From: Vermamoeba vermiformis
Taxonomy: Eukaryota
Reading direction: 5' to 3'
Length of the DNA: 64,000 nt
Assembly (NCBI GenBank): GCA_045837725.1
Contig: JBEWZL010000106.1
Location: 1-64,000 of the forward strand
In this document: positions 4,214 to 56,845 of the stretch, one piece after another
Layout: every line of letters starts with the position of its first letter
Position numbering within the stretch: position 1 is the stretch's first letter
The notes under the pieces: model-generated
The model's input: only the letters and a program-made list of their open reading frames with translations
The model's database searches: none
Told to the model about the DNA's origin: nothing
Position numbers and translations under genes: made by a program

Positions 4214-4594
4214 TTCTAGTATTTTCTAATGCGAGTAAATTGTGAATAAATTCACTTGGCCGAGATCAAACCCTTTCGTACCAGTGGCTGTACCTTGTTG
4301 ATTCTCTTTCGCCTTGCAAGCCGCTCTAATATTATCATCACTATTATTAGAATAATCGCCGCTATTATATCGACATAAGACATTCTGGATGTGGTGTTTT
4401 TAATTTTTCGCCTTTCCACAGAGCTCTAAAGCCTTCTAATAGCGATACCTATCGTCTATATTTATGTCACTATTTAATATGTGTTGCTATTCATTATGAA
4501 TCAAACTTGTGAAATGGTCTTCGGCGGATTTCGCATCAGCTAACTACGTCAGATTTTTTTTTATGAACATAAACGCACTGAATAACACAATAGA

Positions 4595-6345
4595 ATGGTG
4601 CATGATACGGATTATCGCGAAATATTAGGCACACAAGCTCCAACTAGGACTTCCAGCGTCGGCATCCCGTTGAAGAAACCCGCGTGCCAGTACTGCAAGA
4701 AGAGAAAAGTCAGATGTGATCATAAATTACCGTGCAATCAGTGCAAGAAGAGGAAAATAACATGTGAATATGATGCACAGCCTAATACTCAAGAAGACAT
4801 CGTTTCAAAGCTGATCTCGGAGGTCGATCAACTCAAATCCGAATTACACGCACAGAGGCAAATTTCAGAATATTGGCGTAATTTATATCAAGAAAAATCA
4901 CGTATTGATAATCCTATCGTGCTTAATATAACCCGCCGACCTCTGTTTTCTGAATCAACAATTAAATTCAGCCACAACGTCATCAGCGCAGTAGAAAAAT
5001 CAAATAGGGCATTTTTGGAATTAATTTCACCTTTAATGCCTAATACGGCAAGTGAATATCGCCAAGAATATTCAGCTCTGGGATGGAACAGATTGGTTGA
5101 CAGTTTGCCCGAAGATCTCGTCGCCAATATACGTTCTATGAATATAGAATTTATGACACAGATGCTTTATCAATCGTCTATATTTGCACTAGGTAAATAA
5201 CAGAAAATATGCGAATCCAACCAAATTTCAGTTTTCCAACCCAGATCCTCCTCATTTTTGACCGTACGCATCGTGTTTATTGACTTTTCCTAATTAGGAA
5301 CCACTTTATTACAAGAAATAGAGCTTTCAAAGCACTTCAGCAAAATATCAATGTTGCTCTTGGACACGCACGAAATCCATTACGCGAGAACTCAACCAGA
5401 GACAGCGAAACAAGTGATGCTAGCGTATATCTATAGTTTATATTATCTTATGACAAATAGAGAATTTGATTCCATTTCTCCACTTTGGCGCAAAGCCGCA
5501 GACTTTTTTTCGTTCACTGAAAAATATTTTACCCCATCCACGCAAGAAGAGTACGTAATAATTATGCTATAATACTAGTATAACATTAATATTTTATAAT
5601 ATTTTAGAGTGGTTTACTCCCTGACACTCATAGATCCAGCTGAAGCTAGCGCGAGATCCGATTTTTGGATGAGACGATTGGAAACACCCGTCGTTTCGAT
5701 TAACTACAATAAGGTACTATTATAATATAGGTATATTATAGAATATTATTAACAAGTAATTGGCCTTAGCACGTCATCCAGTTGCTAAAAAACATTGCCC
5801 GAGCGATCATCTTAGTACCAAGATCCGCACAATTTTTTGCCACTCAGCCACAATACCTTAAGTAAGTTATAAATATCATATATACTCGACGGCTAAATAA
5901 CCTTTCACTGCTTAGGCATACGTTAGACAACCTGCATTTTGATTGGTTGTTGCAACAAGTCCGATACTCACCATGCTACAATTTCTACGAAATTTTGGTC
6001 CGCAGCGTGCAAAAATTAATTAATTCGTTCATGAACGATAGTTTGATCGAAGAAATTAATCAAGATGAACGAAAAATAGCGGATCTAATGAAGTCGCTGA
6101 ACAGATCACAACAAGCGTATATTTTACGAGGATATGAATATTTTCATTATGTAATTGAAAATTTGCAACGAGTTAGCGACGACTGCACGACAGATCTGAT
6201 TTTAGATCAGCTTGAAATTTTTATCAGCGCGTGTTCCTCTGAAGACTCTGAAAGCGATAATAGCGACTACACTTTTAATAGCAATGATATGTCCGAGGAT
6301 TTGTACCATTTTGTAACCTCTAATACGACTTTAAATGTCTTGTAA
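4595..6345 (+). CDS. Zn(II)2Cys6 (GAL4-like) binuclear-cluster transcription factor, multi-exon
   Basis: ACQYCKKRKVRCDHKLPCNQCKKRKITCEY matches the six-Cys cluster and is followed by a coiled coil. Downstream exons near 5297-5550, 5609-5713, 5770-5861 and 5916-6345. Confidence 0.85.
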
Positions 6346-6492: not shown

Positions 6493-9400
6493 TTACTTTT
6501 GCATGGCTTCGAGTTGAAGCACAATTTTATCAATTGAAATTCGCTTGTCAGGTGCCATATGCCAGCACTCTTTCATCAGCTGTGCAAGCTCTGAAGGACA
6601 CGAGGATGGAATGCTTGGTGTGAGTCCATTATCGCGAATCAGTCTACCAACCTCGATTGGATCTGCTTCTGCATGTGGCTCTGATTGTGCGATGACTTCG
6701 TACATTAGCACACCAAACGACCAGATATCTGCAAACAGAATATTAGTATCTCAATGCAGAAGTTCAATAATATTTGCAGCACATACCAGACTTATTGGAG
6801 TACTCTTTGTTTCTGAGTGACTCAGGCGACATCCATCGAATAGGTCCGAGTTCTGACTTCGTTGTGCCTCGCTGTTTGTCTGAATCGATCAATCGTGACA
6901 TGCCAAAGTCTGTGATCTTGGGCTCGTTCTGATGCAACAACACATTTCTCGCAGCAATGTCACGGTGCACAATGTTGTTCGCATGCAAGTGCTCGAGACC
7001 TTTGGCCATTCCGACGAGCCACGAGAGCTTTTGTTGCACTGAGAGAGGCTGCTTGGCTTCAAAAAGAGCGTCGTCCAAAGAGCCTCCGTTGCAGTACTCG
7101 ATGACCAAGATGATGCTGTCGGTCTCAGGATGCACGCTGAACCCGAACAACTGAATCACATTGGGATGCGGTCGAAGTTGCATCATCAGTTCGAGTTCAC
7201 CAATCACCGTTGAGTTAGCTTGTGTCATGCTGACTTTGAGTGCCACTGTCGTGCTGTTCCACGTGCCTTTGAACACTTGTCCGCTTGCTCCTTGACCGAG
7301 CTGATCACCGAACTTGATGCTCTCGAAGGGAATGAACCATTGGCCGTACTTGCCTGCGAGACCAATCATCTTATCAGAGCCGCCTTGTCTTCTCCTTCGC
7401 TTATTTCTTCGAACTAAAAAGAACACAAGGAGTGCCGTGGCAATGAGTGCCGCACCGATGGGCACAACAATCACGACAATGAATTCTGCCTGAGTGAGAC
7501 CTGAGGGAGAAGTTGATGGTGTCTCGGGGTAGGTGTCATTATTGGAGACAGGTGGGCTAATCGTGATTGCGTTGTGCGGAATGATCATGATTCTGTCGAC
7601 ATACGCGTTGAAGGCTGAAATGCCACCAGCAATGATAGTGACATTAGCACTCGTCTCGAGCACAACTGCCGGACTGAAAGTGAAGTCCAGCTGCTGCTCG
7701 TCAAGGCCACCATTCTCTAAGTCTCGATAGCTCAATATTCCTTCGTTCATCGACAACAAAAAGTTGCCAGCGAGAGCTATCGTCGGGACCGATGAAAGCG
7801 CGTTGGGCAGCTGTTCGTACTGCCACGTGCCAGTGCGCACGTCGTAGATGTAAAGCGAGTTGAATCGATCTGGATTGCCAGTGGTACCCAGAGCACGGCT
7901 AGTGATGTAGAGCCGACCGTCGTTGTGCACTAACATCTGTTGAAACACGTACTTGAAGATGTCCTCCATAATAGGCGCAGGTGCAGTCGAGTTCCACGAC
8001 GGCAACGAATCAGCTGAAAACACGTCCAACGTGTTGTTATTGGTGCGCATGAAAGCCATGCCTTGACTCGTGGGGACTGGGAGGTGCAAGAAGGACGAGG
8101 ACTCGTTGTTGACTACTGGCTGCGTGTAGTTCGTGTACGTCGTCCAATTGCCTGTCACAGGATCATAGACAGCCATCACAGTGTCCATCCACACGACGAG
8201 TTTGTTGTCTAGTGCTGCTGCTGAGTAAAACCAACGCACTACGAAGCCGTTGTTAATCAACTCTGCTGGCATGTCCGTTGAGTTCCACTCGTTCGTCACG
8301 TAGTTGTAAATATCCACGCGGTTGTAATTCACTTTGTCTGCATTCGGGTCCAACAAACTAGCAATAACAAATCGCTCGTTGTCAAAGTCATAGAGTTTCC
8401 CTCCGGACAGCGTCAAGTTGTGATTCGTGACTTGCAACCAGTTGTTCGAGTTCATCACTTGACCGTCGGCCGTAATAAAATCAGAGCCAATGCGTACTTG
8501 TGGTATTATCGCAACTGGTTGTTGTTTGATAGTATTCGCAGCACCGCCGCTAAAAAACGTCGTTTTGGTGACTTTTTGATCAACTTCGAAGATGTAAACT
8601 GCGTCAAGGTCTTCAGCTGGTATCATGCTAACTATAGTGCTAAACCCTGGTATCTCCGAATCAGTTACTCCATACAGCATGTCCAGTGCTAGATCGTAGC
8701 CGTAAATATTTTTGTTTGTCGTAGCGAAGACTTGGTAAAGCGCGAGACTGACGCTGAATGTTACTTCTATTGTCGGTTTAGGCGCTGTTGCGATCCAAAT
8801 ATCCCTCTCGGCATTGTAAATGTTGAATTGCATTGCGGCGCCATCCGAGTACTTGGTCATATAGATCACGGTGTTGTTCAACATGAACGCGTGTTTGAAG
8901 ACAATTGTTTGGTAGATAGGCTGATTGTCAGTGCTATTCCAATATAAAGTGACTAGCTGCGTGTCGTTGAAGAGAAATGTCACGCCAGGCATTGACAGGA
9001 CGTTGCGTAACTTTTCAAGTGAAACAATTGTTTTCCAAGAACGGCGGGCCACGTGGTACAGCAGAACCGTGTCACCGGCGTTTGCTGTGCCAATTCGAAG
9101 TGCTACCACGCCATTGGCTGCAATCGAAGCAATGACGTTCTGTGTCATGAAAGGAGCAGTCACCAGGTCAGGGTACTCTTGCAAGTCGCCACTCGTCATG
9201 TCGTACACCCACACTGAGCTCGAGTAGACATTTGTCGCGACATTGACGCCTCCAAGCACTACCACGACTCCTTCTTCGCTAAAAATAGCGCATGAGGCCA
9301 TGCCTGACAGCAACTTCCGCAGTGGCACCGGATCTGTCCAATTACCACTTTGCACGTCAAGAATATCGACGCCATTGCTGCCAATTACTGCTAGAAAAGT

Positions 9401-9808
9401 GTTGTAAAGAGCTATTCTCTGAGTATTCACGACAGTAGGTCCAGTGCCATAGTTGATGAATTCATGCTGGATCGGATCGTATATGTAGGTCGGATTTACG
9501 TAATGAACTCCACCAACAATATAAATATTTGGGTCTATGACTACTGGAGTTGCAAATGCACGAGGAGAGCTTAGTTGAATTGATGACGTGTTCTGTGAGA
9601 TCAAGTCGTAAACTTCGATCGTGCGTGTTGCTGTCAGATCTCCGTGTTCGAAGCCACCAATAAAATAGACTTTAGAGTCTGCTTCAATAGCTGAAAAGCC
9701 TACTCTCGGCGTGGATAGGGTAGACGTGTTGAAAGCCACTCCAGCAAAACTGATCTGGACCGTAAAAACTAGCGCAACAAATATAAGTTGCCAAATATTG
9801 CACGTCAT
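6493..9808 (-). CDS. Receptor tyrosine-kinase-type protein with Kelch-like extracellular domain
   Basis: Signal peptide, Kelch-like GG motifs (VYFIGG, IYIVGG, VVLGG), a TM helix followed by RRNKRRR, and kinase motifs GQGASG, VALK, HRDIAARN, DFG, PIRWMSPE. One intron at about 6729-6786 joins to DIWSFGV. Confidence 0.9.
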
Positions 9809-10628
9809 GTTTGTGAGCAATCTGATGATTAATTAGGGTTAGTCATTGGCCAGTTATTTAAAAAAAGATATCGACATCCAATTCACAAGTAACCCAGCAG
9901 AACACAATCGCTTCGATTAATGATATCAAAGGAGAAGTTGATTATTATAAAAAAAAATTCGATTGCTTGAATCCAATTTAAAATGCTGGCGCGAAAAGAA
10001 ACCGCGGGAGACAGCTGTCAGCAGATCTGGTTCTTACCTCCGTGTTACCAGGTTAATGTTTGGTCAATTTAGTTGTGGTGCTTCATGTTCGAGTTCAGTA
10101 ACATATAACCGCATAAAGTTGTTCATTCGTCACGTTGTTCATTTCACAGTACCATGTGGACTTCCGTACCAAATGCTGTCTAAACGTTTTGGACTTATAA
10201 AGAATTAAAGATCATATTAAGTCATATTATATTACCAATGCGCTGTATCAACCAATTGAATTTTGTGGTTCGTTTTTTTGCTGATGTGATCGATTGTTTT
10301 CGAATCTGCAACTAACTGTTAGTGGTTAGTAGCAATACCCTAATTTTTTACGATATTTTGAGACCCAACAAACTAATAATAGTTTTTTTGTAATTTTCAT
10401 GTTTGTAAACAGGATCACTAATCCACTAACTAGAATGGTAACTTACACGTGCACGATATATAAGGTCGCACTCATTGTTATATTATGTTGCTTTGTGCTC
10501 CTTTGATCATTCATGTTGGACTGAGCTGGTTTATCGAACGCAAAAAAGTCCACGCACGTACGAGGTTGCAAAACGTTCTTTTAATGAGTTAGACTATCAA
10601 AAAGATATCAGATAGGTTAATAACATAA

Positions 10629-32674: not shown

Positions 32675-33649
32675 CAATCATTTCTGTTCAGAAAAGGATT
32701 AGCTTTCAAATCCACAAAAATCCGTGATTATCTTTCATAAAATTTATCCGAATCGAATCCACATTATTTAGCATCATTATTAACATTATGAGACCAATTA
32801 TTTTTGTTATTTTAATAGATTTGGTTGTACACGATCCACCATAACACAAATAATTTGCATCCATACCTAATAAGAGGACCCGCGGGTGGTCAAATAGTTA
32901 AGGTGTGGTAGCAAACGCTTGGAACTGATACGAAATGAACCAATTAAATTGTTCCGAAACAGTCGGGGACAAAACGTCATAGAGCACACTAAAATTTCAT
33001 TTCACGTGGTTAGGGACGACGTATGACAGTTACCAATTAGAATTGCACGCTCCCGACAAGATTCTATTCAATTAAATCACTGTTATGGAAAGAAGAAGAA
33101 TAGTATATTCACGAGAAGGGACGGGATCGGTCATATAACGGGATCCGTTTAGTGCATTCAATGAAATTCAATTCATCCATGGTCTGTTGCATGCACAGTA
33201 GTTTGTACAAGATATACAGAAGCTGTTTACTGAGTTTTCGGCAACTACTTGCCAAATTTAGTAACGTAAGTGCATTCGATACGCACGGAAGAACCAGATC
33301 ACCGGATAACCTCCTCAAACTGCGGAAATAAATTAATGATACTACCGCGGTCACTCGGTAGTATTAAATTACGATTATGTAATCTCTAATCTCTTTCAGC
33401 AGTGTCGCGCGGGTTGCCAGATAAATCTCGCATTATCTGCCGAAATAATTGATGGGCCCCAGATATTTATCTCCTTTGTGATCTCTACGGCACTCTTTTA
33501 AGACCACCATACTCGAGATTTTGTTCGGGAAACGAAACAAATTTAATTTTTAATGTACACACGCTCAGCTTGCTTCGCCAACAAGACAAAAAGTACGAAG
33601 AACGGCCGACACGCAAAAAAATTCTCGCAAAAAGTATGGTGATGATATA

Positions 33650-36600
33650 TTACTGGTGCACTTCTCTCGTGCTTCGATTTGATTTGTTCTTTGAGCTGCT
33701 CGATCCAGCGGAATCCATAGAAACTTTGGAACCGGATGCTTTCGAATGACGGCTGGAGCGTGAATCTTCGCTCGGAGTACCACTATGCGAGCCAGAGCCC
33801 TCTCGTGCAGAATCTCTCTTAGTGGAAGATCGTTTCTTACGCTGCTAAAAAGTTTATGAGTAAAAGTTTATCCGACAGACTAGTTCACAATGTTTATCCG
33901 AAATAAGGCACTATATAGTGATGTATTTGTGATAAAGTTATTACGGGATTTCTAGCGAGGATCAAATAAATGAAAAAACTTTTGGATCCAGATCTGGATG
34001 TGCACGAAGCTTACCTTAGGACTACGGTCTCGTTCGCTCGAGCCACTCTTAGCACTAACACTGCTTGCGCTCTTCTTTACGACATCCACTTGTGACTCTT
34101 TTTTGTGCATTTCGTGAGCAGATTGAGAGACCTTAACAGGCGTGTTCACCTTGCCGTTGCTATCATGGTCGTTGCTCGACTTCAACTCGTTGTCGTGTTT
34201 CAACTCATCCAGCGAATCATTGTGATATCCAGAGCTCGAATTATAGCTATTCGTGCTATCTGAAGTCATTTGGTTCGTGGTTGAGGAGTTCGTGGTCGAA
34301 TCGGTCGTTGAGGATTGGATCTTGCGTTCTTTGATCTCGCGGAAGATATTCAATATTTCCTCATCACCAATAGTGGTCTGTTGCAATAAAACGATTAAAG
34401 ATTGTCCGTGATACTGGCATAATGTAGATCACGTAGATCTCACAAAATTAATACTTGGATTGAAACTATGTCTGATATCATGTTAATATCGCAACTATAC
34501 GTACCTTAGCGTTAACTATGAATGGGTGTTCTAATAAATTACGAGCGGTTGGACGTTCTTTTGGATCCATTTTCAGACAGCATGAAACAAAGTCGTTGAA
34601 CTCCTTGCTGAATCGACCAGGATTGCTTAATGTCGGTACCTTGCCCTATAATCAAACTCATTAATACAACTTATAAATCGTTAGCATTGCAAGATATCAC
34701 ACCACGGGCATTTAATTGAAAAAAAGATTCGATCTGCTCCGCATTAAAAGATGAAAATAATACAGAAATTAAGAATGGCTATATAAGGTTATTTGACGCA
34801 CCTGGCTAATGCCTAACATGATTGCATAGGGATTAGTGTCCTTGAATGGAGTAGACTTTTCGGCCAATTCAATAGCGGTGATTCCGAGGGACCAAATATC
34901 CGCCTTTTGGTTATAGCCCTCCTCTTTGAATATTTCTGGCGCCATCCAGCTAAAAATAGAAACGTAAATTTGATGATTCAGCAGAAAACTCCGGATAACA
35001 TAAAAAACCAATCAACGGAACATTAAGATTGTCTTATATGTCTATTATAGTCACGTTACTTACCTAGGAGTACCAACAATCGTATTTTTCAATTTATCTT
35101 CGATGAGTTTGCTGGCAATGCTGAAATCGGCTATAATTAAAGTTTAGTATTGTGTACTTTGACCAGTAAATTGCAACGTACCAATCTTAATTTTAGCATA
35201 TGACGTTAACAATAAGTTGGCCGCTTTGACGTCACGATGGATCTTGCCGTTTTCGTGGATGTATGCTAAACCGGACAAAACTTGAATCAAGATAGTAGCA
35301 AGTGCGTTCTCGGATAACATCTTATTCGTCTTCTTTAAGAACGAGTCAATAGCACCTCCCTTGCAATACTCCATTACAATCTGAAATCACGCAGTTAGCA
35401 AAAGAACGGAGCTGCATTTAACCAAATAAGGTAAAATTTCGCGTTTACACCCCCAATAAAAACATTTGCAAAGCATGCTTAAAGAAATGAAACGGTTAGT
35501 ATAACACATACCCAGTGCGTATTCTCGTGCTGGTAACATCCATAATATTGGATCACGTTTGGATGTGCCATTGCTTTCAATAGCTCGACTTCGTTTACCA
35601 AGCCATCAAATGAAGAATGAAGGATCTTAACAGCAACAAGGTGGTTATTAGCCTTGAATCGTGCCTTATGTACGCGTCCATAAGCCCTACAAATAGATTT
35701 TTAATAAATCTAAAAATAGCCCGTAAAATTCTCTCGATCTAATGAAAACCGCCATGGCGGAAGAATACGTACCCTGTTCCAAGGAGCCTTCCTAATATGA
35801 ACAACTTGGTTGGGTTTGCTGAGAATACCAAAGCTCCTTTTCTATTTTTAGTAAAGAATATGGTTAGCAATTTTATATTCACTGAACGTGGCACAGATCC
35901 ACGGGCAATTGTTCGTTTTCCGATAAGCTCCGCGTGTTCCAATTACTTAACGTTATAGCAACAATACTTACAGGTCAAGCTCGCCACGTAATAACTTGTT
36001 CTCAGTTTCCAACATCCGCAATCGTTCTTTCAGCTGCGTAATATCTTCATCACCTACATCCGAGCTCGAACCTTCTATCTGCTGTCGAGGTTATAAATAA
36101 GAAGAGTTGAATAATTAATCTATTGGAGTTCAAAAAAGAATTTCGGATCTTTTTCAAAAAAGCAATCGGAGATTTGTAAGATCTCTTAGTTGATCTTATT
36201 CAGCTTTCAAATGCATATATTCGTATTAAAGAGTATTTGTCCGATCGTTGGTACCTTTTTTTGTTGTCTAAAAGTGGCGATAAAGGTCGTTTGGCCTTCT
36301 TTGTTAAGCTCTCCCAACGAGATCTCGACTAATTAATAAATTCATCGTTAGTATTGCACAGAATAGTACGTTTACGATGAATAATCTTTTTAGTATGCGA
36401 AAATCGACACATTCAGTGAACAATATCTTCCAGATCCGATCAGATCAAAAATTATTTTGAACTTACCATCCAGAGGATTGCCATCTTTGTGCTTTCCTCG
36501 GACTATACGCCTAATACCAATAAGCCTACGCTCGCCAGTTCGATGGTAGTTGTCGATCCAACGGTCATGCCTACAATTTGCAAGGATTAGAATAAAAGTT

Positions 36601-37457
36601 AAAAATTGTGTTTAGCACATCCGCAGAAAATTTGGCAACAAAATCAAGTGCCAAACTAATCGTTGTAATTATGATAATACTATCGTGCTTACTTTCTCGC
36701 TAAATCATCAACCATTAGCTCTTTTACGTTTTGACCCACCATCTCGCTCTTTTTGTAACTAGTAAATACGCATTAATTCCGTTACCGTTGATTACGGGCT
36801 ATTTATGCAACATATAAACGCTATTTATCGTGCTTACCCGAAGAGTTGTTCAGCTGCCGCGTTGAATCCAATAATCGTTCCTTCGCGATTACTCATAACA
36901 ACCGCATCATTAATGTTCTCGAGCGTATCTTCGATAGAAAGGCTTTGCGTGCACCCAGCAGTCTATAATATTCGCAAGTTAATATAATTTTGAGATTGAT
37001 TATCAGATCCGAACCAGAAAAGTAAAAATAAGAATTACGCAAATAAGACTAGATCTGAAGCGCTAATCATGACTGAATTGTAAAATTATATATTTAGCTT
37101 TAAATAAAGCAAATAAGGTTAATAATAGGCCGTGAAATCAACCCCGGCCCCGATAAATTAATATTTAATTCTCGTTCTTACTTGAATAGTCCGGATCCAT
37201 CGCTCAACCTCCTCTTTGCTTTTGCATTGGAAGAATATAAACTGCTTAGATTTGCCGAATATACCAAAGCTGTACTGTTTTTTGGTCAATCTCTCGGCAT
37301 CTTGCACTACCGTATCATTGAGCGTGATAGTTTGCTTAGGCTTGCGTGCGTCGTGTCGTGAATATATTTTGAGCTCATGTCCTTCCAATCTGACGTAGAC
37401 TGTCTTCCATTTGCCCCAGACACCTTTTTTCTCTAGATATCCTTCCAGTTTCTCCAT
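33650..37457 (-). CDS. PH + FixL-like PAS + STE20-family Ser/Thr kinase, multi-exon
   Basis: PH domain (EGYLEKKG..WK..ERWIRTI). PAS domain (DAVVMSNREGTIIGFNAAAEQLFGY..VGQNVKELM..HDRWIDNY). Kinase motifs HRDVKAANLL, VGTPSWMAPE, DIWSLGITAIELAE. Ser-rich tail. Confidence 0.9.
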
Positions 37458-38433
37458 CTGGCTCTAACAAGGCTTCAACTATATTACTACAAATATATTA
37501 TATGTACATAAACTATAAAATGGTGTGAAGCCTGTTGTGGTCGTCGAAGAAGGGCAAAAATAGTATACCGAGTGGAGAAAATTTTGTGCCGCTTGCCCGA
37601 GGATAGAAATTCACCACGTGGCTCGGATCACGTACGCCGCAGGACGGCGCTGAATGGACAGACTCGTGAAATATAAACCAAATGTCAAGGTAGAATGTGT
37701 GCGTCAGATTCGAGAGTAGCAAATGTAAGATGAGCGAGCTTCAGGGCAGAACTATTGGACCAAACAAATCTTGACTAGTAATTTGAGACTACTTGCTAGT
37801 AATTTCTATCGTGAAATTGCAAAATAAGCTGCTGTAACAGCATTATAATCAATTTTTCGGTATTATTCGATGCGTAAATCCTAAAAACTCGTTCGCGCGA
37901 CTTAAATTCCATTTCCTTTAGCCTAAACAAGCCGTGGCAATGTATAATTACGTAGGTATGCTTCATATTGAATTCCGCGCCTCCGTGCTCATCTCAAATG
38001 CAACGGCTGGCTGCATCGGGACCCTTCTTACTGGGCTCGTGTTTGTGGCCATAAATCTAAATTAGGCAATCGGATGGTGTCTTATGTAATGTGCGCGGTC
38101 TGGTGTTTGTCTCCAAGCTCGTGATAATTAGCCCAAACAAGGCAACAAACCTAAATTGTCTTGAAACGGTCGTTTTTGTTATTACTCGCACAGATCACCA
38201 GCAAACACATAACGTGCTCGTGTATTTATAGCACGTATTTAATATACAACAGATTAGTTAGGCCCTTAGAAACAGCTAGTCCGTTACGAATCAAAAAAAA
38301 CCGCCAAGCGATTCAGATTCGATAGTATCAAGCTCAATACGGATTACTATAGACGATTGGATTGATATATATTTGCATTTGGATGATTTAGTGCAATCAC
38401 TATTATAAAACAACGCAGACAGAATAAGATAAA

Positions 38434-41198
38434 ATGGGCTGTGTAAAATCTAAAGAGACAGTTGCTTTGGATCCAGTTCATGGTAATATATTATAGACGT
38501 ATATATGCATTTAATGGGACATTGTTGCCAGCTTAATAATAGTTTGCATACGAGAAAATTTAATTTAGTTTTGTATTTTAGTGGATGGCCACGCGATTTT
38601 TAACGGCTAATTTGATTCATATTGTAATTATAATATTATAAAATACCCATAATAATTCACAAAAAACTCATAATGCTGGCCAATCAATGGAAATTCAAAA
38701 TTAAATTTTTCATTGATGCGTTAATTTGACACTAACGTCCTTATTAAATATTAGTAACGCTCGATCATTTCGAAAAGCTACGAGTCGTTGGCAAAGGAGC
38801 GTTCGGCAAGGTAAGCAATCTCATCTTCCCTATCTTTAATGGCGAATCTGCTTTTAGCCCGGCTAATGACATTTGACGTCTATAAAAAATTATATTCATA
38901 GGCCCGAAAATGCTATAATCTCAAATCCTTATTTCTATCTCGTTAGGAGTACCTCCAGGCCTAAAAATTACTGCATTTTTCCTTTGCACTAATTTTATCT
39001 TTAATTAACGCCGTTTTGAAATTTCTAAATGCTGAATCTGCTCATCTAGGTCCACGCCGTTCAACGACGCGATAAGAAAGTGTTATATGCTATGAAAGTG
39101 CTCGATAAACAAGAGCTGATTAATAAGAAGATGGTTTCAAGCGTTTTACGTGAACGAGAATTTTTGGCCCGAATCTCGTACCCGCTCATCGTTAACTTGT
39201 GCTATGCTTTCCAAACAGGTACGTACCGACATAATTATAGCCGTGTATCTCATTAACGCTTCATTTTGCGCAGAGGCGGAGTTGCTAATGATTGTCGATC
39301 TGATGCTCGGCGGTGCACTTCGTTATCATTTAAACCACGACAAACACTTCAGTGAGGATAGGTGCAGGTTCTACGTGGCCCAGACGGCACTCTCATTACA
39401 CTACTTGCATCGTAGAGGATTAGTGCACCGAGATATAAAACCAGACAATTTGCTTTTGGATGCGGAAGGTAAGCAAAAAAAAATTAAAAATAATATAAGA
39501 CGGTAGATCTGTGGCGAATAATTGCTGCGGAACTATACGTACTATTAGATCGTTTTATTTTCGAAGTCGTTCAAATGTTCGCTTGCCTAAAGTAGCAATT
39601 TTATGGGTCTGAAATTTTCTTATGCCTAAAGCGGATCTGATTAATTAAGAACGAGCTAGTTACTGAGATAATAATACTGTCTTATATTGCGATCGTATTT
39701 AATAATATTTTTTTATAACGGCTAGCTCGGATATGATATTCAGGCCAGATCAAGCCTTTTAAAATTATTATTGATTCAATTTAATTATATTTTCGAATCG
39801 GAAGGACTCGCTACGCTTCTTATGAATATATGACGCATTATAATAATTGTTTTGTATTAATAGGTAATTGCCACGTTACCGATTTCAACCTTTCAATCGA
39901 AGTGCCTAAAGGAGGTCTACGAGGGACTGCAGGAACAAGAAATTATATTGGTACGTGCAATATACATATATGTGGCATATATAGCCATTTGGAATAGTAA
40001 ACAAGACTAACAGTTCGTTTTTTTGTCGATCAGCTCCCGAGATCCTGAACCGCAAGCCTTATGGTTTCTCAGTTGATTGGTTCTCGCTGGGCGTGTTATT
40101 ATATGAAATGTTTACAGGACGGGTAAGTATTAGATACCTGTATATAAGCATATTCACACGCGCTACATTCATTTCGAAAACTTGGCTCGTGCAAATCTGC
40201 TCCGTTACGAAATTATTTCGCTGAAAATGCCGTACTATATGATGATAGTACTAATATTATGTTATTTAGTTGCCATTTAGCCAAAGAAAGGATGAAAAAG
40301 AGTTCAAATTCGATACAGATGAGTTGTACTTGCCGAGCTCCACTTCAAAGGGCTTGAAACAAGTATTGTTTGGCGTAAGTTAATATAAATATCCATGATA
40401 TATATTCAATGCTTATATAATATTATTACAGTTATTGGAGCAAGATCCGGCTAAGCGGTTCAATTTTGAAACTTTAAAACAACAAGAATGGTTTGAAGGA
40501 CTCAATTGGGAGGACCTAGAGAATAAGAGAATTAAGCCGCCATTCCAACCCGATCAAGTAAGCACTTTTTTTACTGATTTTTCGTTTTGAAACGGATCCA
40601 GTACGCGCTGGGCATAAATTTAATTATTAATTTATTTTCTTTGAAATTATAATCGGGATGGCATCGCAAGTATTATTGGCGATTTTTAGAAATTATTTGA
40701 AATATTTTTACGCATTACTAAGCGAATTTTGTCGTGGATCCGCGTACCGTACTTTGAGTCCCTAATTCTTATTTGTTAATTCAGAAACACGCCAACTTTG
40801 ACGGTACATTTGACTTGGACGAGCAGTTCGAGACTAAGAAGAAGAAGGTAGCTGTAACAGCTGAGCTGGACGAGCAATTCAAGGGCTGGGACTACAACCC
40901 TGAAGTCGACGGCAAGAAGACTCCCAGACCATTGCTTACCTCTGAGAATAGCACCGATGACATCATCAACGCACCTACAGTAGGCAATTTCGATATGAGC
41001 AATCCTGGTACAGTTCAGTGGCCGGAAACGGATGCGGAAGATGCGCAGATGACGAGCGAATCTGAAGGAAAAAAGAAAGCTAATGGCCAGAATGGTAAAG
41101 CCCAAGCCAATGGAAATGGAAACTCGCAGAGTTCAGTCAGCGAGAGCTCCTCCTCTGGATCTGACTCTGGCTCCGAATCTCCTGTCGAAAACAAATAG
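38434..41198 (+). CDS. AGC kinase, STK32/YANK-like, probably N-myristoylated, multi-exon
   Basis: MGCVKSK start, [52 protein letters not shown], and an AGC C-tail KPPFQP...HANFD. Confidence 0.9.
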
Positions 41199-54000: not shown

Positions 54001-56845
54001 ATGAAGAGACGAAAGGGATCGTCGACGAACGATCTAATAGACAAAGATGGCTATATTGACAAGGAAAATCGATCTGACGACTCTGACGAGGATTTACGAC
54101 CGGCGAAGAAACAAAAAACGGCCACAAATCATTTTGATAGCCTGCCAGCAGAATTATTAATACATATTTTCAATCTTGCGGATATGGAGCTCAGCGGGTA
54201 AGCAATTTAATAACTATTTTCAGGTCATCTAGAATTTTTTTCATTAATTAAAATATACCGAAAAGAATCAATAATAGTTGTTGTCAATTCAGTCCCTATA
54301 ATACATTTTAAATGTTGGATGCGATAAAATCGCGACAAAAACGACTGTCGTGATCCAGATGGCAAGTTTTACGCGCCAATTTTTATTATCATAGGAGAAG
54401 CCATTCATATAATTTATTCAAGATTGGTAAATATATCACAAACTTGATTTATATACAAGAAGGAAATATACTCTGCTCAGATGTGTTTCGAAAAAGATTT
54501 TCCGAGGCATTTAACCCCTTTGCCAGTCACATCGCTCCAAAAATCAAATTTGTCTATACGAATTCTAACATATGATAATTTACGAGCTTTTAATAGCATC
54601 CAATGAAACTAAATCTTTTTTGTGAACCCAGCGAATACATCCGCTCACATAGGATCCAGCTCGTTTTCCATAATTAGCAATTATTAATTTATGCGCGTAA
54701 TATCTCGCGTGTTACCCTCGGAGAAGAATTAAATACGATTGATTTAAATTCTCCAGTTAAATTAAAGCGTTTTGGCAGATCCAATAATTTTATCCTTTTC
54801 AGGCAAATTTTAAATCATTTGATCAGCAGTAAATCGTGTGTAATTTACTAATAATACAATAATATATTAGATTGGTCATATTAGAACGAGTATGTCAACG
54901 GTGGCGCCAAGAATGTTGGAAAGCAGTTGAAAATTTGACCGTCGTTTCAAAAAGATCCGCGAGTCTATTAACAAAATGCAAACGACTCAAATATTTGCAG
55001 CTTATTAACGTACCAGTAGACACATTAGAAGCAGTTACACAATTAACCCAGTTGATCCAACTATACGTCAAGCAAGGATTTAACAGCCGATTATTGCACA
55101 ATTTAATTCATTTAAAACACTTGCGCGCGCTCTCATTGGTCAAATGCGACGATTTAACGCCCTACAGACTCGCACGTGACATTTCTGCTTTCGTCCACGT
55201 GACTTCGCTAAATTTGGCTCACACGCCAGTAACCAACCACGTGATCGAGAGTATTGGATTATTAACCAGACTGCGCCAGTTAAGTTTCGGATTCAGATCC
55301 GGAATTTTAAATTTTTCACCGGGCACGGAATTAGCGGCCCTAAGTAACTTGACAAACTTAAAGTTACTGTACTGCCACTCCATAGAATTTCAGCAAAGCT
55401 TGGTCTACCTGACAGCACTCCGATCGATCGAAAATTTGTTATTAAAGGCCTGTTCTAGTCTCAATTTTGACGCGACAACGATTGGCCTCAATTGCACGCG
55501 ATTAACGCACATTCAATTCAAGTATTGTACGCAAGGTAAGCACTCTATATTATAGTATTATATACATATATACTACGAGATAAGTATACAGTGTATCGTT
55601 TGTTTATTGGCATTGCAAAGCAACGCGAAATTTTATTTTTATTTTTAAAATTCGAAACATAAACCGGATCTCCTTCACTTCTAGTTAAAATTGTATAAAT
55701 AACACAAGATATATATTAATGGCGTATTAGATAACTATGGTTATCGCTTATAATGACGGATCCGATAAGGAAACTTTTCTTTGTTTAGTTAAATTTGCCC
55801 GGGCTTAACGACGACTTAAAATCCATGAATTAAATCATATTTATTTTATAATTAATTAATGTATAGTTGGTGGCACTCTGCTATTAGCACGAGATTTTCT
55901 TTGCGTTTGCGAAAATTTTTTCTTGATATTGTTTGCCATTATTTTATTGTTTCATGAAAAGCAATCTATCGGAGGTGCTTCGATAACTTAAAACACAGCA
56001 CTATTTTTTATCCCCCCGAATGTCCGATGTCATGAATCAGATCCGATTTAACGCTTTTTTCCATTTTAGGAAGTGCAGCGCTGTCGATCACCACGCTGAG
56101 CTGTCTCAAAGCGATCGAATTGGAAATGTTTCACGGCAACATCGTCGAATTGACACCACTTGTCAATCTGAAGTCTTTGCGAGTATTGGGATCTGGATCA
56201 ACTGTCCGAGCATTGACAAATTTGGAAAAGTTGACAGCACTCCACGCACTGTTTTTAGACACGCCTGGATGCGATTTCCACGGAGTATCGCGTTTGACAG
56301 GTTTGACATATTTGACACTTCGACCTGTCATCTCAGCACCCAACTACTTGCGCGATTTAACCTTATTAGGCGAACTCAACTTTGTTGGTTCCAAAAATAG
56401 CAACCCAAATCACGCTATTCCAAATTTGGTCGATTATTTCACGCACCTCAAAAATCTCCGGTTAATCTCGCTATGGAACTTTCACCCCTTTCCTTTGCAA
56501 CCATTCGCGCGGCTGAGTTCACTGATCGGCTTAGCGCTCGGCGATATCGATCAATTGCCTAAAGAGGAAATAGCGGAAATACTCAAGAACTCGACTCAAA
56601 TTCGCGCCATAAAAATCACGCGGTGTAAAGGCCTGCCAGAAATGACGGCAACGACACGTGGTCTAGTTGACAGCTATTTGACTAATTTGGACAATTTGGA
56701 GGTGTACACTGGCGCTAATAATAACAATAACAATCCTACTGGACCGAATAACGTCGGTGGTGCCAATAACAACAATAACACGGATGTAGCGGAGAACGAA
56801 GCGAACGACAACGAAAACGAGATCAACAATCATCTAATAAACTGA
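54001..56845 (+). CDS. F-box/LRR protein with Asn-rich tail, multi-exon
   Basis: FDSLPAELLIHIF...LERVCQRW F-box split by an intron, followed by LRRs. Confidence 0.85.

Follow-up and report, generated by a model that had tools for sequence, protein, structure and literature searches.

Gene structure and expression

The gene described here lies on the minus strand of contig JBEWZL010000106.1 of Vermamoeba vermiformis, in a window that comprises the whole stretch of DNA analysed (64,000 nucleotides), and occupies positions 33650-37457 with 14 exons that together encode 702 amino acids (Table 1). Its coding sequence runs from the ATG at 37457 to the stop codon at 33652-33650, i.e. exactly the span that a preliminary description, made from the sequence alone, had assigned to a kinase with a FixL-like sensor domain. 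The four small exons placed there at about 36255-36961 correspond, to within 1 base, to exons 2 to 5, and the spliced peptide read from them is residues 142-186 of the 702-aa product. In order, the protein comprises a PH domain (aa 1-92), a FixL/DosP-type PAS domain (aa ~96-215), a coiled coil (aa ~223-251), an STE20/MST-like kinase domain (aa 264-514) and a Ser/Thr/Lys-rich tail. All 13 introns have GT..AG borders after a 1-base shift at three of them, which the read alignment permits, and an alternative acceptor at 36081, 3 bases upstream, adds one codon to exon 6 in one contig (joints 36078>36255 and 36081>36255). In the surroundings of the gene, Pfam matches of ten neighbouring ORFs included F-box/LRR, Zn(2)-Cys(6) and a Kelch-TM-TKL kinase.

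Table 1. Exons and other features of the gene on contig JBEWZL010000106.1
Feature	Position	Strand	Content
Exon 1	37182..37457	-	aa 1-92, PH domain; X18 contig spans 37182-37500
Exon 2	36838..36962	-	aa 93-134, PAS N-terminal cap helix and first strands; Pfam PAS E 3.4e-5
Exon 2 joints	36962>37182 and 36758>36838	-	seen in transcript contigs
Exon 3	36693..36758	-	aa 135-156, PAS helices; V145, L148 and M149 identical to BjFixL V188, L191 and M192
Exon 4	36467..36570	-	aa 156-191, F-alpha helix, FG loop and G-beta strand
Exon 4 key codons	proximal His157 36569-36567; distal Arg177 36509-36507	-	also Asn163 at the BjFixL Arg206 position
Exon 5	36255..36328	-	aa 191-215, H-beta and I-beta; I193, L195 and F206 at BjFixL L236, I238 and F249
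Exon 5 end		-	R-Q-Q-K-K where bacterial relatives carry R-D-x-T-E (alignment)
Exon 6	35972..36078	-	aa 216-251, acidic linker and coiled coil; AF2 helix 223-251
Exon 7	35773..35841	-	aa 251-274, start of kinase domain, Gly-rich loop
Exon 8	35512..35686	-	aa 274-332, kinase N-lobe, VAVK lysine; Pfam Pkinase E 4.8e-7
Exon 9	35182..35380	-	aa 333-399, catalytic loop HRDVKAAN; Pfam Pkinase E 4.3e-17
Exon 10	35064..35130	-	aa 399-421, DFS replacing DFG, activation loop
Exon 11	34802..34949	-	aa 421-470, WMAPE and kinase C-lobe; Pfam Pkinase E 1.3e-10
Exon 12	34505..34645	-	aa 471-517, end of kinase domain; Pfam Pkinase E 1.6e-7
Exon 13	34015..34377	-	aa 518-638, Ser/Thr/Asn/Lys-rich tail without a recognised domain
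Exon 14, coding part	33650..33844	-	aa 639-702 and stop codon 33652-33650

The gene is real and expressed, with all of its domains on one spliced mRNA. A single public contig of 2199 nt (run X18, depth 11.7) covers 33617-37500 without any of the 13 introns, each of which reads CT..AC on the plus strand, so that the CDS is flanked by transcribed sequence on both sides (5' UTR to at least 37500 and 3' UTR to at least 33617), and run X1 contains 12 of the 13 joints. Further support comes from a relative (90-95% alike), whose raw RNA-seq reads span five junctions, namely 34949>35064 (12 reads in X23), the PAS-to-coiled-coil junction 36078>36255 (6 in X21, 4 in X23), 35380>35512 (3 in X21, 1 in X23), 34644>34801 (3 in X23) and 36759>36841 (5 in X21, 3 in X23). 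It follows from the intronless contig and the junction-crossing reads that the PH, PAS and kinase exons share one mRNA. The exon structure proposed in the preliminary description, for which RNA-seq had been suggested as a check, is thus borne out at 13 of 13 joints in one contig, and one outcome that was to speak against the proposed kinase (PH/PAS and kinase exons on separate transcripts) does not apply, because this one contig carries all three.

The reading frame is under purifying selection: among the differences listed, which leave 65 further ones outside these counts, all 20 between the RNA reads of the relative and the gene are synonymous third-position changes, and 17 of the 20 in the contigs are synonymous, with the other three all located in the tail (two in exon 13 and one in exon 14).

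The PAS domain belongs to the FixL/DosP group

Judged by sequence similarity and predicted fold, the PAS domain is clearly a member of the FixL/DosP group, in agreement with the FixL-like assignment made earlier. Even exon 4 alone (34 aa), when compared with 177,635 PDB sequences, gave only 8 matches at E<=10, of which seven were FixL heme domains (E 5.6e-6 to 2.9e-3) and the remaining one an unrelated protein (E 0.96). Whole-domain tests were run on the ortholog P0001, a 421-aa intron-free ORF on a 1465-nt contig that is 96% identical to the gene product over 420 aa, from PH domain through kinase. Its PAS domain matched seven FixL sequences in the PDB with E 7.8e-26 to 6.1e-18, followed by six DosP/EcDOS sequences (E 5.2e-14 to 3.8e-13), while the next match was at 5.3e-6; LOV and other PAS structures scored 5e-6 or worse. 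The Pfam PAS family (PF00989) is recognised on exon 2 by itself (E 3.4e-5) and on P0001 (E 4.5e-12), and no family was found on exons 3, 4 or 5 searched singly, because such single-exon pieces are too short. In the AF2 model the PAS domain has a pLDDT of 85-98, all top Foldseek matches of this model are FixL or DosP, and its superposition on BjFixLH (2vv6) gives a TM of 0.96 and an rmsd of 1.1 A, with 37% identity over 106 columns. Heme-binding PAS domains of the FixL/DosP type make up 'cluster 3' of PMC10468136.

Among known systems, the closest likeness is therefore to FixL of rhizobia (BjFixL and Sm/RmFixL; 1dp6, 1d06, 2vv6, 8js5), with a PAS TM of 0.96 and 32-37% identity, a coiled coil following the PAS domain and a predicted dimer in which the N-cap helix packs on the beta-sheet. 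The gene product differs from FixL in its eukaryotic Ser/Thr kinase output, its N-terminal PH domain, its introns and an acidic linker, predicted to be disordered, before the coiled coil. FixL proper has HisKA and HATPase_c as its output, whereas Pkinase is found here by Pfam instead, together with R-Q-Q-K in the alignment at the coupling motif; the protein is therefore not a FixL, but only carries a FixL-type sensor domain. The second-closest solved group is E. coli DosP/EcDOS (1v9y, 1s66, 9cdr; E ~5e-14, TM 0.84-0.86), which has the same type of His-ligated heme pocket as is predicted here, but is bacterial and has c-di-GMP phosphodiesterase output. In DosP a distal Met serves as the sixth ligand.

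Residues of the predicted heme pocket

The pocket was compared by ungapped alignment, in which the BjFixL number equals that of the gene product plus 43. The proximal histidine of BjFixL on the F-alpha helix (His200) is matched by His157 and the distal arginine on the G-beta strand (Arg220) by Arg177, which upholds, both in this alignment and in the orthologs, the earlier claim of a FixL-like segment that retains these two residues. Also identical are Y164 (Tyr207), I173 (Ile216), I175 (Ile218), V179 (Val222) and F206 (Phe249), while L172/Ile215, I193/Leu236, L195/Ile238 and V191/Met234 are conservative replacements, so that the hydrophobic distal residues Ile215, Ile216, Leu236 and Ile238 of BjFixL find their counterparts in Leu172, Ile173, Ile193 and Leu195. 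The roles of His200, Ile215/216, Leu236 and Ile238 in the heme pocket of BjFixL are described in PMC10765370. Equivalents of His157, Arg177, Tyr164 and Phe206 are kept in all ten PAS domains of eukaryotic protein-kinase proteins that were examined, three of the ten being from the same lineage as the gene studied.

The positions through which FixL switches and couples to its output are less well kept. Arg206 of BjFixL, named as the switch's 'proximal arginine' in the title of PDB 2cmn and the reference list of PMC10765370, is Asn163 in both the gene product and P0001; elsewhere this position is Arg in P0169 and P0193 and Lys in P0271, while P0252 has Arg/Lys in one of its PAS domains and His in its second. 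BjFixL His214 corresponds to Arg171. At the C-terminus of the PAS domain, where the motif R-D-[VIL]-[TS], which links PAS domains of bacteria with the helix of their output, has its Asp in 59 of 64 and its Thr/Ser in 59 of 64 comparison rows (alignment A1, mostly bacterial), the eukaryotic proteins have R-Q-Q-K (this gene), R-S-V-K (P0169) and R-P-V-K (P0271). Together with DFS in the kinase domain (see below), Asn163 and the lost R-D-x-T weaken a simple reading in which the protein works just like FixL.

PH domain, kinase and predicted dimer

The PH domain is recognised on exon 1 (Pfam PF00169, E 1.6e-14; AF2 pLDDT 86-94), with basic residues around its first two strands, and it may target the protein to a membrane. 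Pfam finds Pkinase on four kinase exons (8, 9, 11 and 12), and for exon 9 the closest matches among solved structures in the PDB are MST1/MST2 (STK4/STK3; E 4e-14), followed by STK24/25, PAK, SLK and TAO, which fits the STE20/MST type proposed in the preliminary description. The VAxK lysine, HRD, the Asn and GTPSWMAPE are present, the last of which we take to be the GTPxWMAPE-type activation segment of STE20-group kinases. DFG, on the other hand, is replaced by DFS, as it is in P0169 and P0271, and this substitution could lower kinase activity. As in the closest solved catalytic core, that of MST1/MST2, activation could involve dimers, given that MST kinases are activated by dimer-driven trans-autophosphorylation; the gene product differs from these kinases in having DFS for DFG and in its C-terminal tail, in which no SARAH domain and no Pfam family below E 0.68 were found. 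We know of no MST kinase with N-terminal PH and PAS domains.

A dimer of the sensor part is predicted. Two copies of the PAS domain and coiled coil (P0001 aa 93-262, heme included) reached a dimer score of 0.67, compared to 0.00 for the best of three controls, with runs agreeing in at least 81% of contacts and a partner pLDDT of at least 80; in the model the coiled coil makes parallel, in-register contacts and the N-cap helix packs against the beta-sheet. The mark applied was reached by 20 of 30 same-chain pairs and 1 of 23 single chains in calibration, and for eukaryotes by 17 of 29 pairs (no more than 1 of the 7 that lacked an older solved relative) and 0 of 30 single chains, in jobs that differ from the present one by its own alignment and the included ligand. 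Since the dimer of the FixL PAS domain has already been solved (8js5), the pass may reflect memory. Between PAS domain and coiled coil, residues 217-227 have an AF2 pLDDT below 50.

Orthologs and related architectures

The same architecture recurs in at least two eukaryotic transcriptomes that are more distant: P0169 and P0271 are 43-45% identical to the gene product and combine PH, PAS and kinase in intron-free ORFs that span all domains. Other combinations were also seen, i.e. PAS-PH-PAS-PH-PAS with a kinase (P0193), TM-PAS-PAS with a TKL kinase (P0252), SAM-PB1 with three PAS domains (P0251, P0253 and P0259) and arrays of 13 PAS repeats, in which the His is kept in 856 of 883 domains.

A word-based search with the PAS region, covering proteins of 231-737 aa, gave 310 proteins at E<=0.001 among 384 candidates. 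Among the 120 matches listed, no protein-kinase family was found in the 119 other than P0001, these being histidine kinases, chemoreceptors, GGDEF proteins or PAS-only fragments; however, this search missed P0169 and therefore provides no evidence of absence. With aa 1-262 of P0169 as the query, P0271 was the only further family member among 17 matches. A quick PAS tree (99 rows, 120 columns) left 48 of its 95 forks unresolved. In a protein atlas the nearest clusters were plant PAS-Raf-like kinases and metazoan PASK (scores 0.93 and 0.92), i.e. generic PAS-kinase clusters only, none of them with a PH domain, and our literature search found no description of a eukaryotic Ser/Thr kinase that carries a heme PAS of the FixL type.

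Among eukaryotes, the most similar known design is that of phototropins (LOV-PAS with an AGC kinase) and PASK (PAS with a CAMK-type kinase), in which Ser/Thr kinases likewise stand under an N-terminal PAS sensor, although their PAS domains hold flavin or no fixed cofactor and their kinases belong to other groups. The FXL proteins of Chlamydomonas have a FixL-like heme-PAS and would be a precedent for a heme- and O2-binding FixL-type PAS domain encoded by a eukaryotic nuclear genome, but they are not known to be PH-PAS-STE20 proteins.

A candidate gas-sensing kinase

The combination of PH domain, FixL-like heme pocket and STE20 kinase marks the protein as a good candidate for direct gas sensing with Ser/Thr phosphorylation as its output. 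We consider it fairly probable that one gene encodes, in one chain of 702 aa, a PH domain, a heme-binding PAS domain, a linker with coiled coil, an STE20 kinase and a disordered tail, and that this chain is a gas-regulated kinase; here we infer heme binding, O2 (as opposed to NO, CO or redox) as the signal, and regulation of the kinase. The PAS domain would bind heme b via His157, and binding of a diatomic gas to the iron would shift the FG loop and beta-sheet, with O2 as the most likely ligand, given that Arg177, the distal residue that stabilises O2, is retained. Gas binding would then alter the geometry of the PAS/coiled-coil homodimer, which in turn would set the trans-autophosphorylation of the activation loops by the two STE20 kinase domains, while the PH domain would put the sensor on a membrane. 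The signal probably does not travel along a continuous signalling helix as in FixL, since R-D-x-T and Arg206 are missing and the acidic linker is modelled with low confidence. More tentatively, the protein may be a direct heme O2 sensor at a eukaryotic membrane and at the same time part of a wider radiation of FixL-type heme-PAS domains wired to eukaryotic signalling domains.

Alternatively, the PAS domain could bind heme and yet respond to NO, CO, the redox state of the iron or heme availability rather than O2, for which the altered switch residues (Asn for Arg206, Arg for His214) and the loss of the FixL coupling motif can be brought forward, as well as the example of DosP and other heme-PAS domains of this group, which react to several different ligands; with the distal Arg kept in 10 of 10 eukaryotic kinase PAS domains and the distal hydrophobic residues conserved, we regard this as rather unlikely. 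The same loss of the output coupling motif, along with the generic PAS-kinase clusters that are its atlas neighbours, would suit a PAS domain without heme that mediates dimerisation or protein contacts, or binds another small ligand, ahead of an STE20 kinase that is constitutive or regulated by other means, as in PASK. Such a domain would hardly explain, however, why orthologs that are only 43-45% identical share an invariant His157, Arg177, Tyr164 and Phe206 and conserved hydrophobic residues in the pocket, and in the sequence comparison FixL and DosP score 8 to 20 orders of magnitude better than any non-heme PAS domain in the PDB, which makes a heme-free PAS somewhat more improbable still.

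An artefact, i.e. neighbouring PH-PAS and kinase genes that were misjoined, or bacterial contamination that contributed the FixL-like part, is very remote. Its sole ground is that, among the matches listed in the word-based search, the nearest PAS relatives come from bacteria, whereas one contig holds all 14 exons, raw reads cross 36078>36255, the PAS domain is itself split by three GT..AG introns and intron-free orthologous ORFs span all domains; both contamination and misjoining were rejected on account of the all-exon contig and the junction reads.

In bacteria, heme-PAS gas sensors drive histidine kinases, cyclases or phosphodiesterases, and oxygen sensing in eukaryotes is thought to proceed mainly via oxygenases. 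A pocket of the FixL type that is joined to an STE20 kinase and a PH domain, and is under purifying selection, now appears in several distant microbial eukaryotes. If the proposed gas-sensing function is true, it would constitute a route of O2 sensing separate from that of the prolyl-hydroxylase type, and a one-protein link between a dissolved gas and a MAP4K-type phosphorylation cascade. Should the mechanism hold, the family would also be a natural example of a sensor module from bacteria that now drives a eukaryotic output through a new coupling, with the motif used in bacteria absent.

Gene structure and transcription

On the minus strand, in a window of 36-41% G+C, three-frame translation gives the PH-PAS-kinase gene as a series of short open stretches parted by GT..AG introns. 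Public sequencing runs were aligned to 33600-37500 for splice evidence. A single 2199-nt contig of run X18 (depth 11.7) spans 33617-37500 minus 13 skipped stretches, all of which are CT..AC on the plus strand (i.e. GT..AG on the minus strand); 12 of these 13 joints are present in run X1, while raw RNA-seq reads (X21 and X23) from a relative 90-95% alike cross five junctions (see table). For three introns the GT..AG reading requires a 1-base shift, which the read alignment permits, and with these shifts applied 14 exons form a 702-codon open frame, from the ATG at 37457 to the stop at 33652-33650. The gene ends in the preliminary description (33650 and 37457) are exactly those of the spliced frame, its peptide corresponds to residues 142-186 of the product, and its "four small exons" are exons 2-5. 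Since every exon lies on the X18 contig, the possibility it raised of separate transcripts for PH/PAS and kinase falls away. Both the architecture and the expression of the gene are established, and the gene model with its single transcript is practically certain.

Splice junctions read in the relative's RNA-seq and neighbouring features (window coordinates)
Feature	Position	Strand	Evidence
Junction	34644>34801		3 reads X23
Junction	34949>35064		12 reads X23
Junction	35380>35512		3 + 1 reads (X21/X23)
Junction	36078>36255		6 reads X21, 4 reads X23
Junction	36759>36841		5 + 3 reads (X21/X23)
F-box/LRR	117-1739	minus	open frame
Zn(2)-Cys(6) binuclear cluster domain	4586-5200	plus	PF00172, E 2.6e-8
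LRR, Asn-rich runs at end	54863-56845	plus	open frame

Splicing of intron 5 uses either of two acceptors that lie 3 bases from each other (36078-36081, minus strand): 36078>36255 occurs in X1, X21 and X23, and 36081>36255 in X18 and one X21 read, the latter form adding one codon (Gln) to the linker between PAS and coiled coil. Two fragments, 97-99% identical to P0001 (a near-identical ortholog), run into introns: P0209 has spliced PAS exons 2-5 followed by a retained intron after exon 5, and in P0230 exon 1 is continued by intron 1. The close relative thus shares these exon borders, and public data include partly spliced forms.

Conservation is established as well. P0001 is a 421-aa ORF that lies without introns on a public contig of 1465 nt; it takes in the PH domain, continues into the kinase domain and is 96% identical to the window product over 420 residues. 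Among the differences listed, all 20 in the relative's RNA reads are synonymous and at third positions; in near-identical contigs 17 of 20 are synonymous, and all three replacements fall in the C-terminal tail; a further 65 differences lie outside these counts. Judged by this substitution pattern, the coding frame is under selection.

Of the neighbouring features, the Zn(2)-Cys(6) domain is a hint, though not a decisive one, of a fungal or amoebozoan source. Two neighbours also appear to encode kinases. The open frame at 6764-9832 (minus strand, 1022 aa) combines Kelch repeats and a TKL-type kinase domain with a hydrophobic segment that is followed by a basic stop-transfer stretch, an arrangement resembling that of a receptor-like kinase. 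The divergent neighbour on the plus strand from 38436, ~980 bases upstream of the PH-PAS-kinase ATG, starts with Met-Gly-Cys, a possible N-myristoylation start, and has, after an intron, a kinase Gly-rich loop at ~38748-38876.

A FixL-type sensor domain on a STE20 kinase

Exon 1 encodes the PH domain (PF00169, E 1.6e-14; pLDDT 86-94) and exons 2-5 a single PAS domain (PF00989, E 4.5e-12 on P0001; pLDDT 85-98 in the AlphaFold model). The proposal that this PAS is specifically FixL-like is borne out by sequence and structure alike, and its membership of this sensor-domain class is established. A search of all PDB sequences with just the 34 aa of exon 4 brings up eight matches, seven of them to FixL heme domains (E 5.6e-6 to 2.9e-3), the eighth being unrelated (E 0.96). 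With the whole PAS of P0001, seven FixL sequences (E 7.8e-26 to 6.1e-18) are followed by six of DosP/EcDOS (E 5.2e-14 to 3.8e-13), LOV and other PAS domains beginning only at E 5.3e-6. The model superposes on BjFixLH with a TM of 0.96 (rmsd 1.1 A, 37% identity), and its top Foldseek matches are without exception FixL or DosP.

In ungapped alignments the BjFixL number is the window number plus 43, an offset anchored by two mutant chains, 2cmn (by title the proximal-arginine switch mutant, with Ala at that position in the exon 4 alignment) and 1y28 (by title R220A). His157 and Arg177 are thus identical to the proximal ligand His200 and the distal Arg220, both of which had been read correctly as retained. 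Tyr164, Ile173, Ile175, Val179, Phe206, Val145, Leu148 and Met149 of the pocket are also identical, and the changes at Leu172 (Ile215), Ile193 (Leu236), Leu195 (Ile238) and Val191 (Met234) are conservative. For comparison, passages of PMC10765370 give His200/His194 as the FixL heme ligand and Ile209/210, Leu230 and Val232 as the distal cover of SmFixL. Heme binding by the PAS domain is quite probable.

There are nevertheless clear departures from FixL. The proximal "switch" Arg206 is replaced by Asn163 and BjFixL His214 by Arg171, and a histidine kinase output is lacking. In 64 mostly bacterial comparison rows (alignment A1) the end of the PAS domain reads R-D-[VIL]-[TS]-E-R-K, leading into the output helix (Asp and Thr/Ser in 59 of 64 rows each), whereas this end is R-Q-Q-K-K in the window lineage, R-S-V-K-R in P0169 and R-P-V-K-G in P0271, the last two being distant orthologs. 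The protein therefore carries a FixL-type sensor domain but is not a FixL, and given these departures the signal is probably not carried along one continuous helix.

In the AlphaFold model, exon 6, which encodes the linker and coiled coil, comprises an acidic low-confidence stretch (217-227, pLDDT <50) and a long helix (223-251). Exons 7-12 encode the protein kinase domain, whose catalytic-core exon finds MST1/MST2 best in the PDB (E 4e-14), then STK24/25, PAK, SLK and TAO, which places it in the STE20 group and agrees with the MST-type assignment made beforehand. The lysine, HRD, Asn and GTPSWMAPE segment are kept, while DFG is replaced by DFS, as in P0169 and P0271. The last 185 residues form a Ser/Thr/Asn/Lys-rich tail with no Pfam family match and no SARAH domain. 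An MST/Hippo ortholog is ruled out because the SARAH domain is absent; the likeness to those kinases is in the catalytic core.

Relatives

An exhaustive phmmer search with P0001 (1.84 billion representatives, E<=0.001) gave 632,709 matches, the best 150 of which are mostly very long proteins in which PAS is repeated up to 13 times. Also among these 150 are P0169 (541 aa), aligned continuously over residues 5-420 with PH, PAS and a complete kinase, P0193 (PAS-PH-PAS-PH-PAS-kinase) and P0252 (TM-PAS-PAS-TKL kinase); a further search added P0271 (550 aa), another PH-PAS-kinase protein. P0169 and P0271, complete ORFs in EukProt transcriptome assemblies, share 43% and 45% identity with the window protein over ~520 residues. 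The His, Arg, Tyr164 and Phe206 are kept in all ten PAS domains of these kinase proteins, three of the ten being from the window's own lineage.

A quick tree was made of 99 PAS domains: nine from eukaryotic kinase proteins, and the best-scoring domain each of 45 word-search proteins and 45 representatives, chosen from the 1093 domains extracted. Those linked to a PH domain (window, P0001, P0169, P0271 and three of P0193) form one group (SH-aLRT 97), and both P0252 domains fall among bacterial rows. With 120 columns, half of it unresolved and a root for drawing only, the tree indicates a family of PH-linked PAS, neither its origin nor its donor.

Other architectures surround this sensor too. 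P0251, P0253 and P0259 are SAM-PB1-PAS x3 proteins with FixL-like PAS, another eukaryote-type arrangement; P0253 is one of the weakly attached neighbours of the PH-linked group, and P0251 and P0259 lie elsewhere. Representatives such as P0121-P0168 (1,000-5,500 aa) carry up to 13 tandem FixL-like PAS repeats; of 883 domains in such long arrays, 856 retain the His and 675 the Arg. Arrays of 10-21 PAS in oomycete histidine kinases appear in a section of PMC3019232.

Predicted dimerisation and proposed mechanism

The PAS and coiled-coil segment of P0001 (aa 93-262) was modelled as a dimer of two copies with heme included, which scored 0.67 vs 0.00 for the best of three controls, with at least 81% shared contacts between runs and partner pLDDT of at least 80. 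Among solved proteins this mark was passed by 20/30 same-chain pairs and 1/23 single chains; for eukaryotes it was passed by 17/29 pairs, yet by only 1 of the 7 pairs that lack an older solved relative, and by 0/30 single chains. The predicted interface combines a parallel, in-register coiled coil, self-contacting at 238, 242 and 245, with the N-cap helix against the partner's beta-sheet. The modelling supports PAS/coiled-coil pairing, but because the FixL PAS dimer has been solved (8js5), the pass may mirror likeness to it and not be independent evidence.

Heme-PAS sensors are already known, as are PAS-controlled Ser/Thr kinases (phototropin, PASK), and the FXL proteins of Chlamydomonas are FixL-like heme proteins of a eukaryote. 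None of the full-text literature searched was seen to describe a eukaryotic Ser/Thr kinase bearing a FixL-type heme PAS, whether PH is present or not, and the supplements of PMC10468136 may list such proteins. Passages of the P. infestans kinome paper (PMC3019232) present, in 2010, a PAS-bearing MAPK as a novelty and do not mention heme.

The reading of the PH-PAS-STE20 protein as a gas sensor is a prediction. Heme b would be bound on His157, with O2 as the most likely ligand, stabilised by Arg177; ligand binding would alter the PAS/coiled-coil dimer, and the altered dimer would control trans-autophosphorylation of the STE20 kinase. Control of the kinase by gas (O2) has, in our judgement, an even chance of being correct. 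The PH domain would place the protein, and with it the putative sensor, at the membrane.
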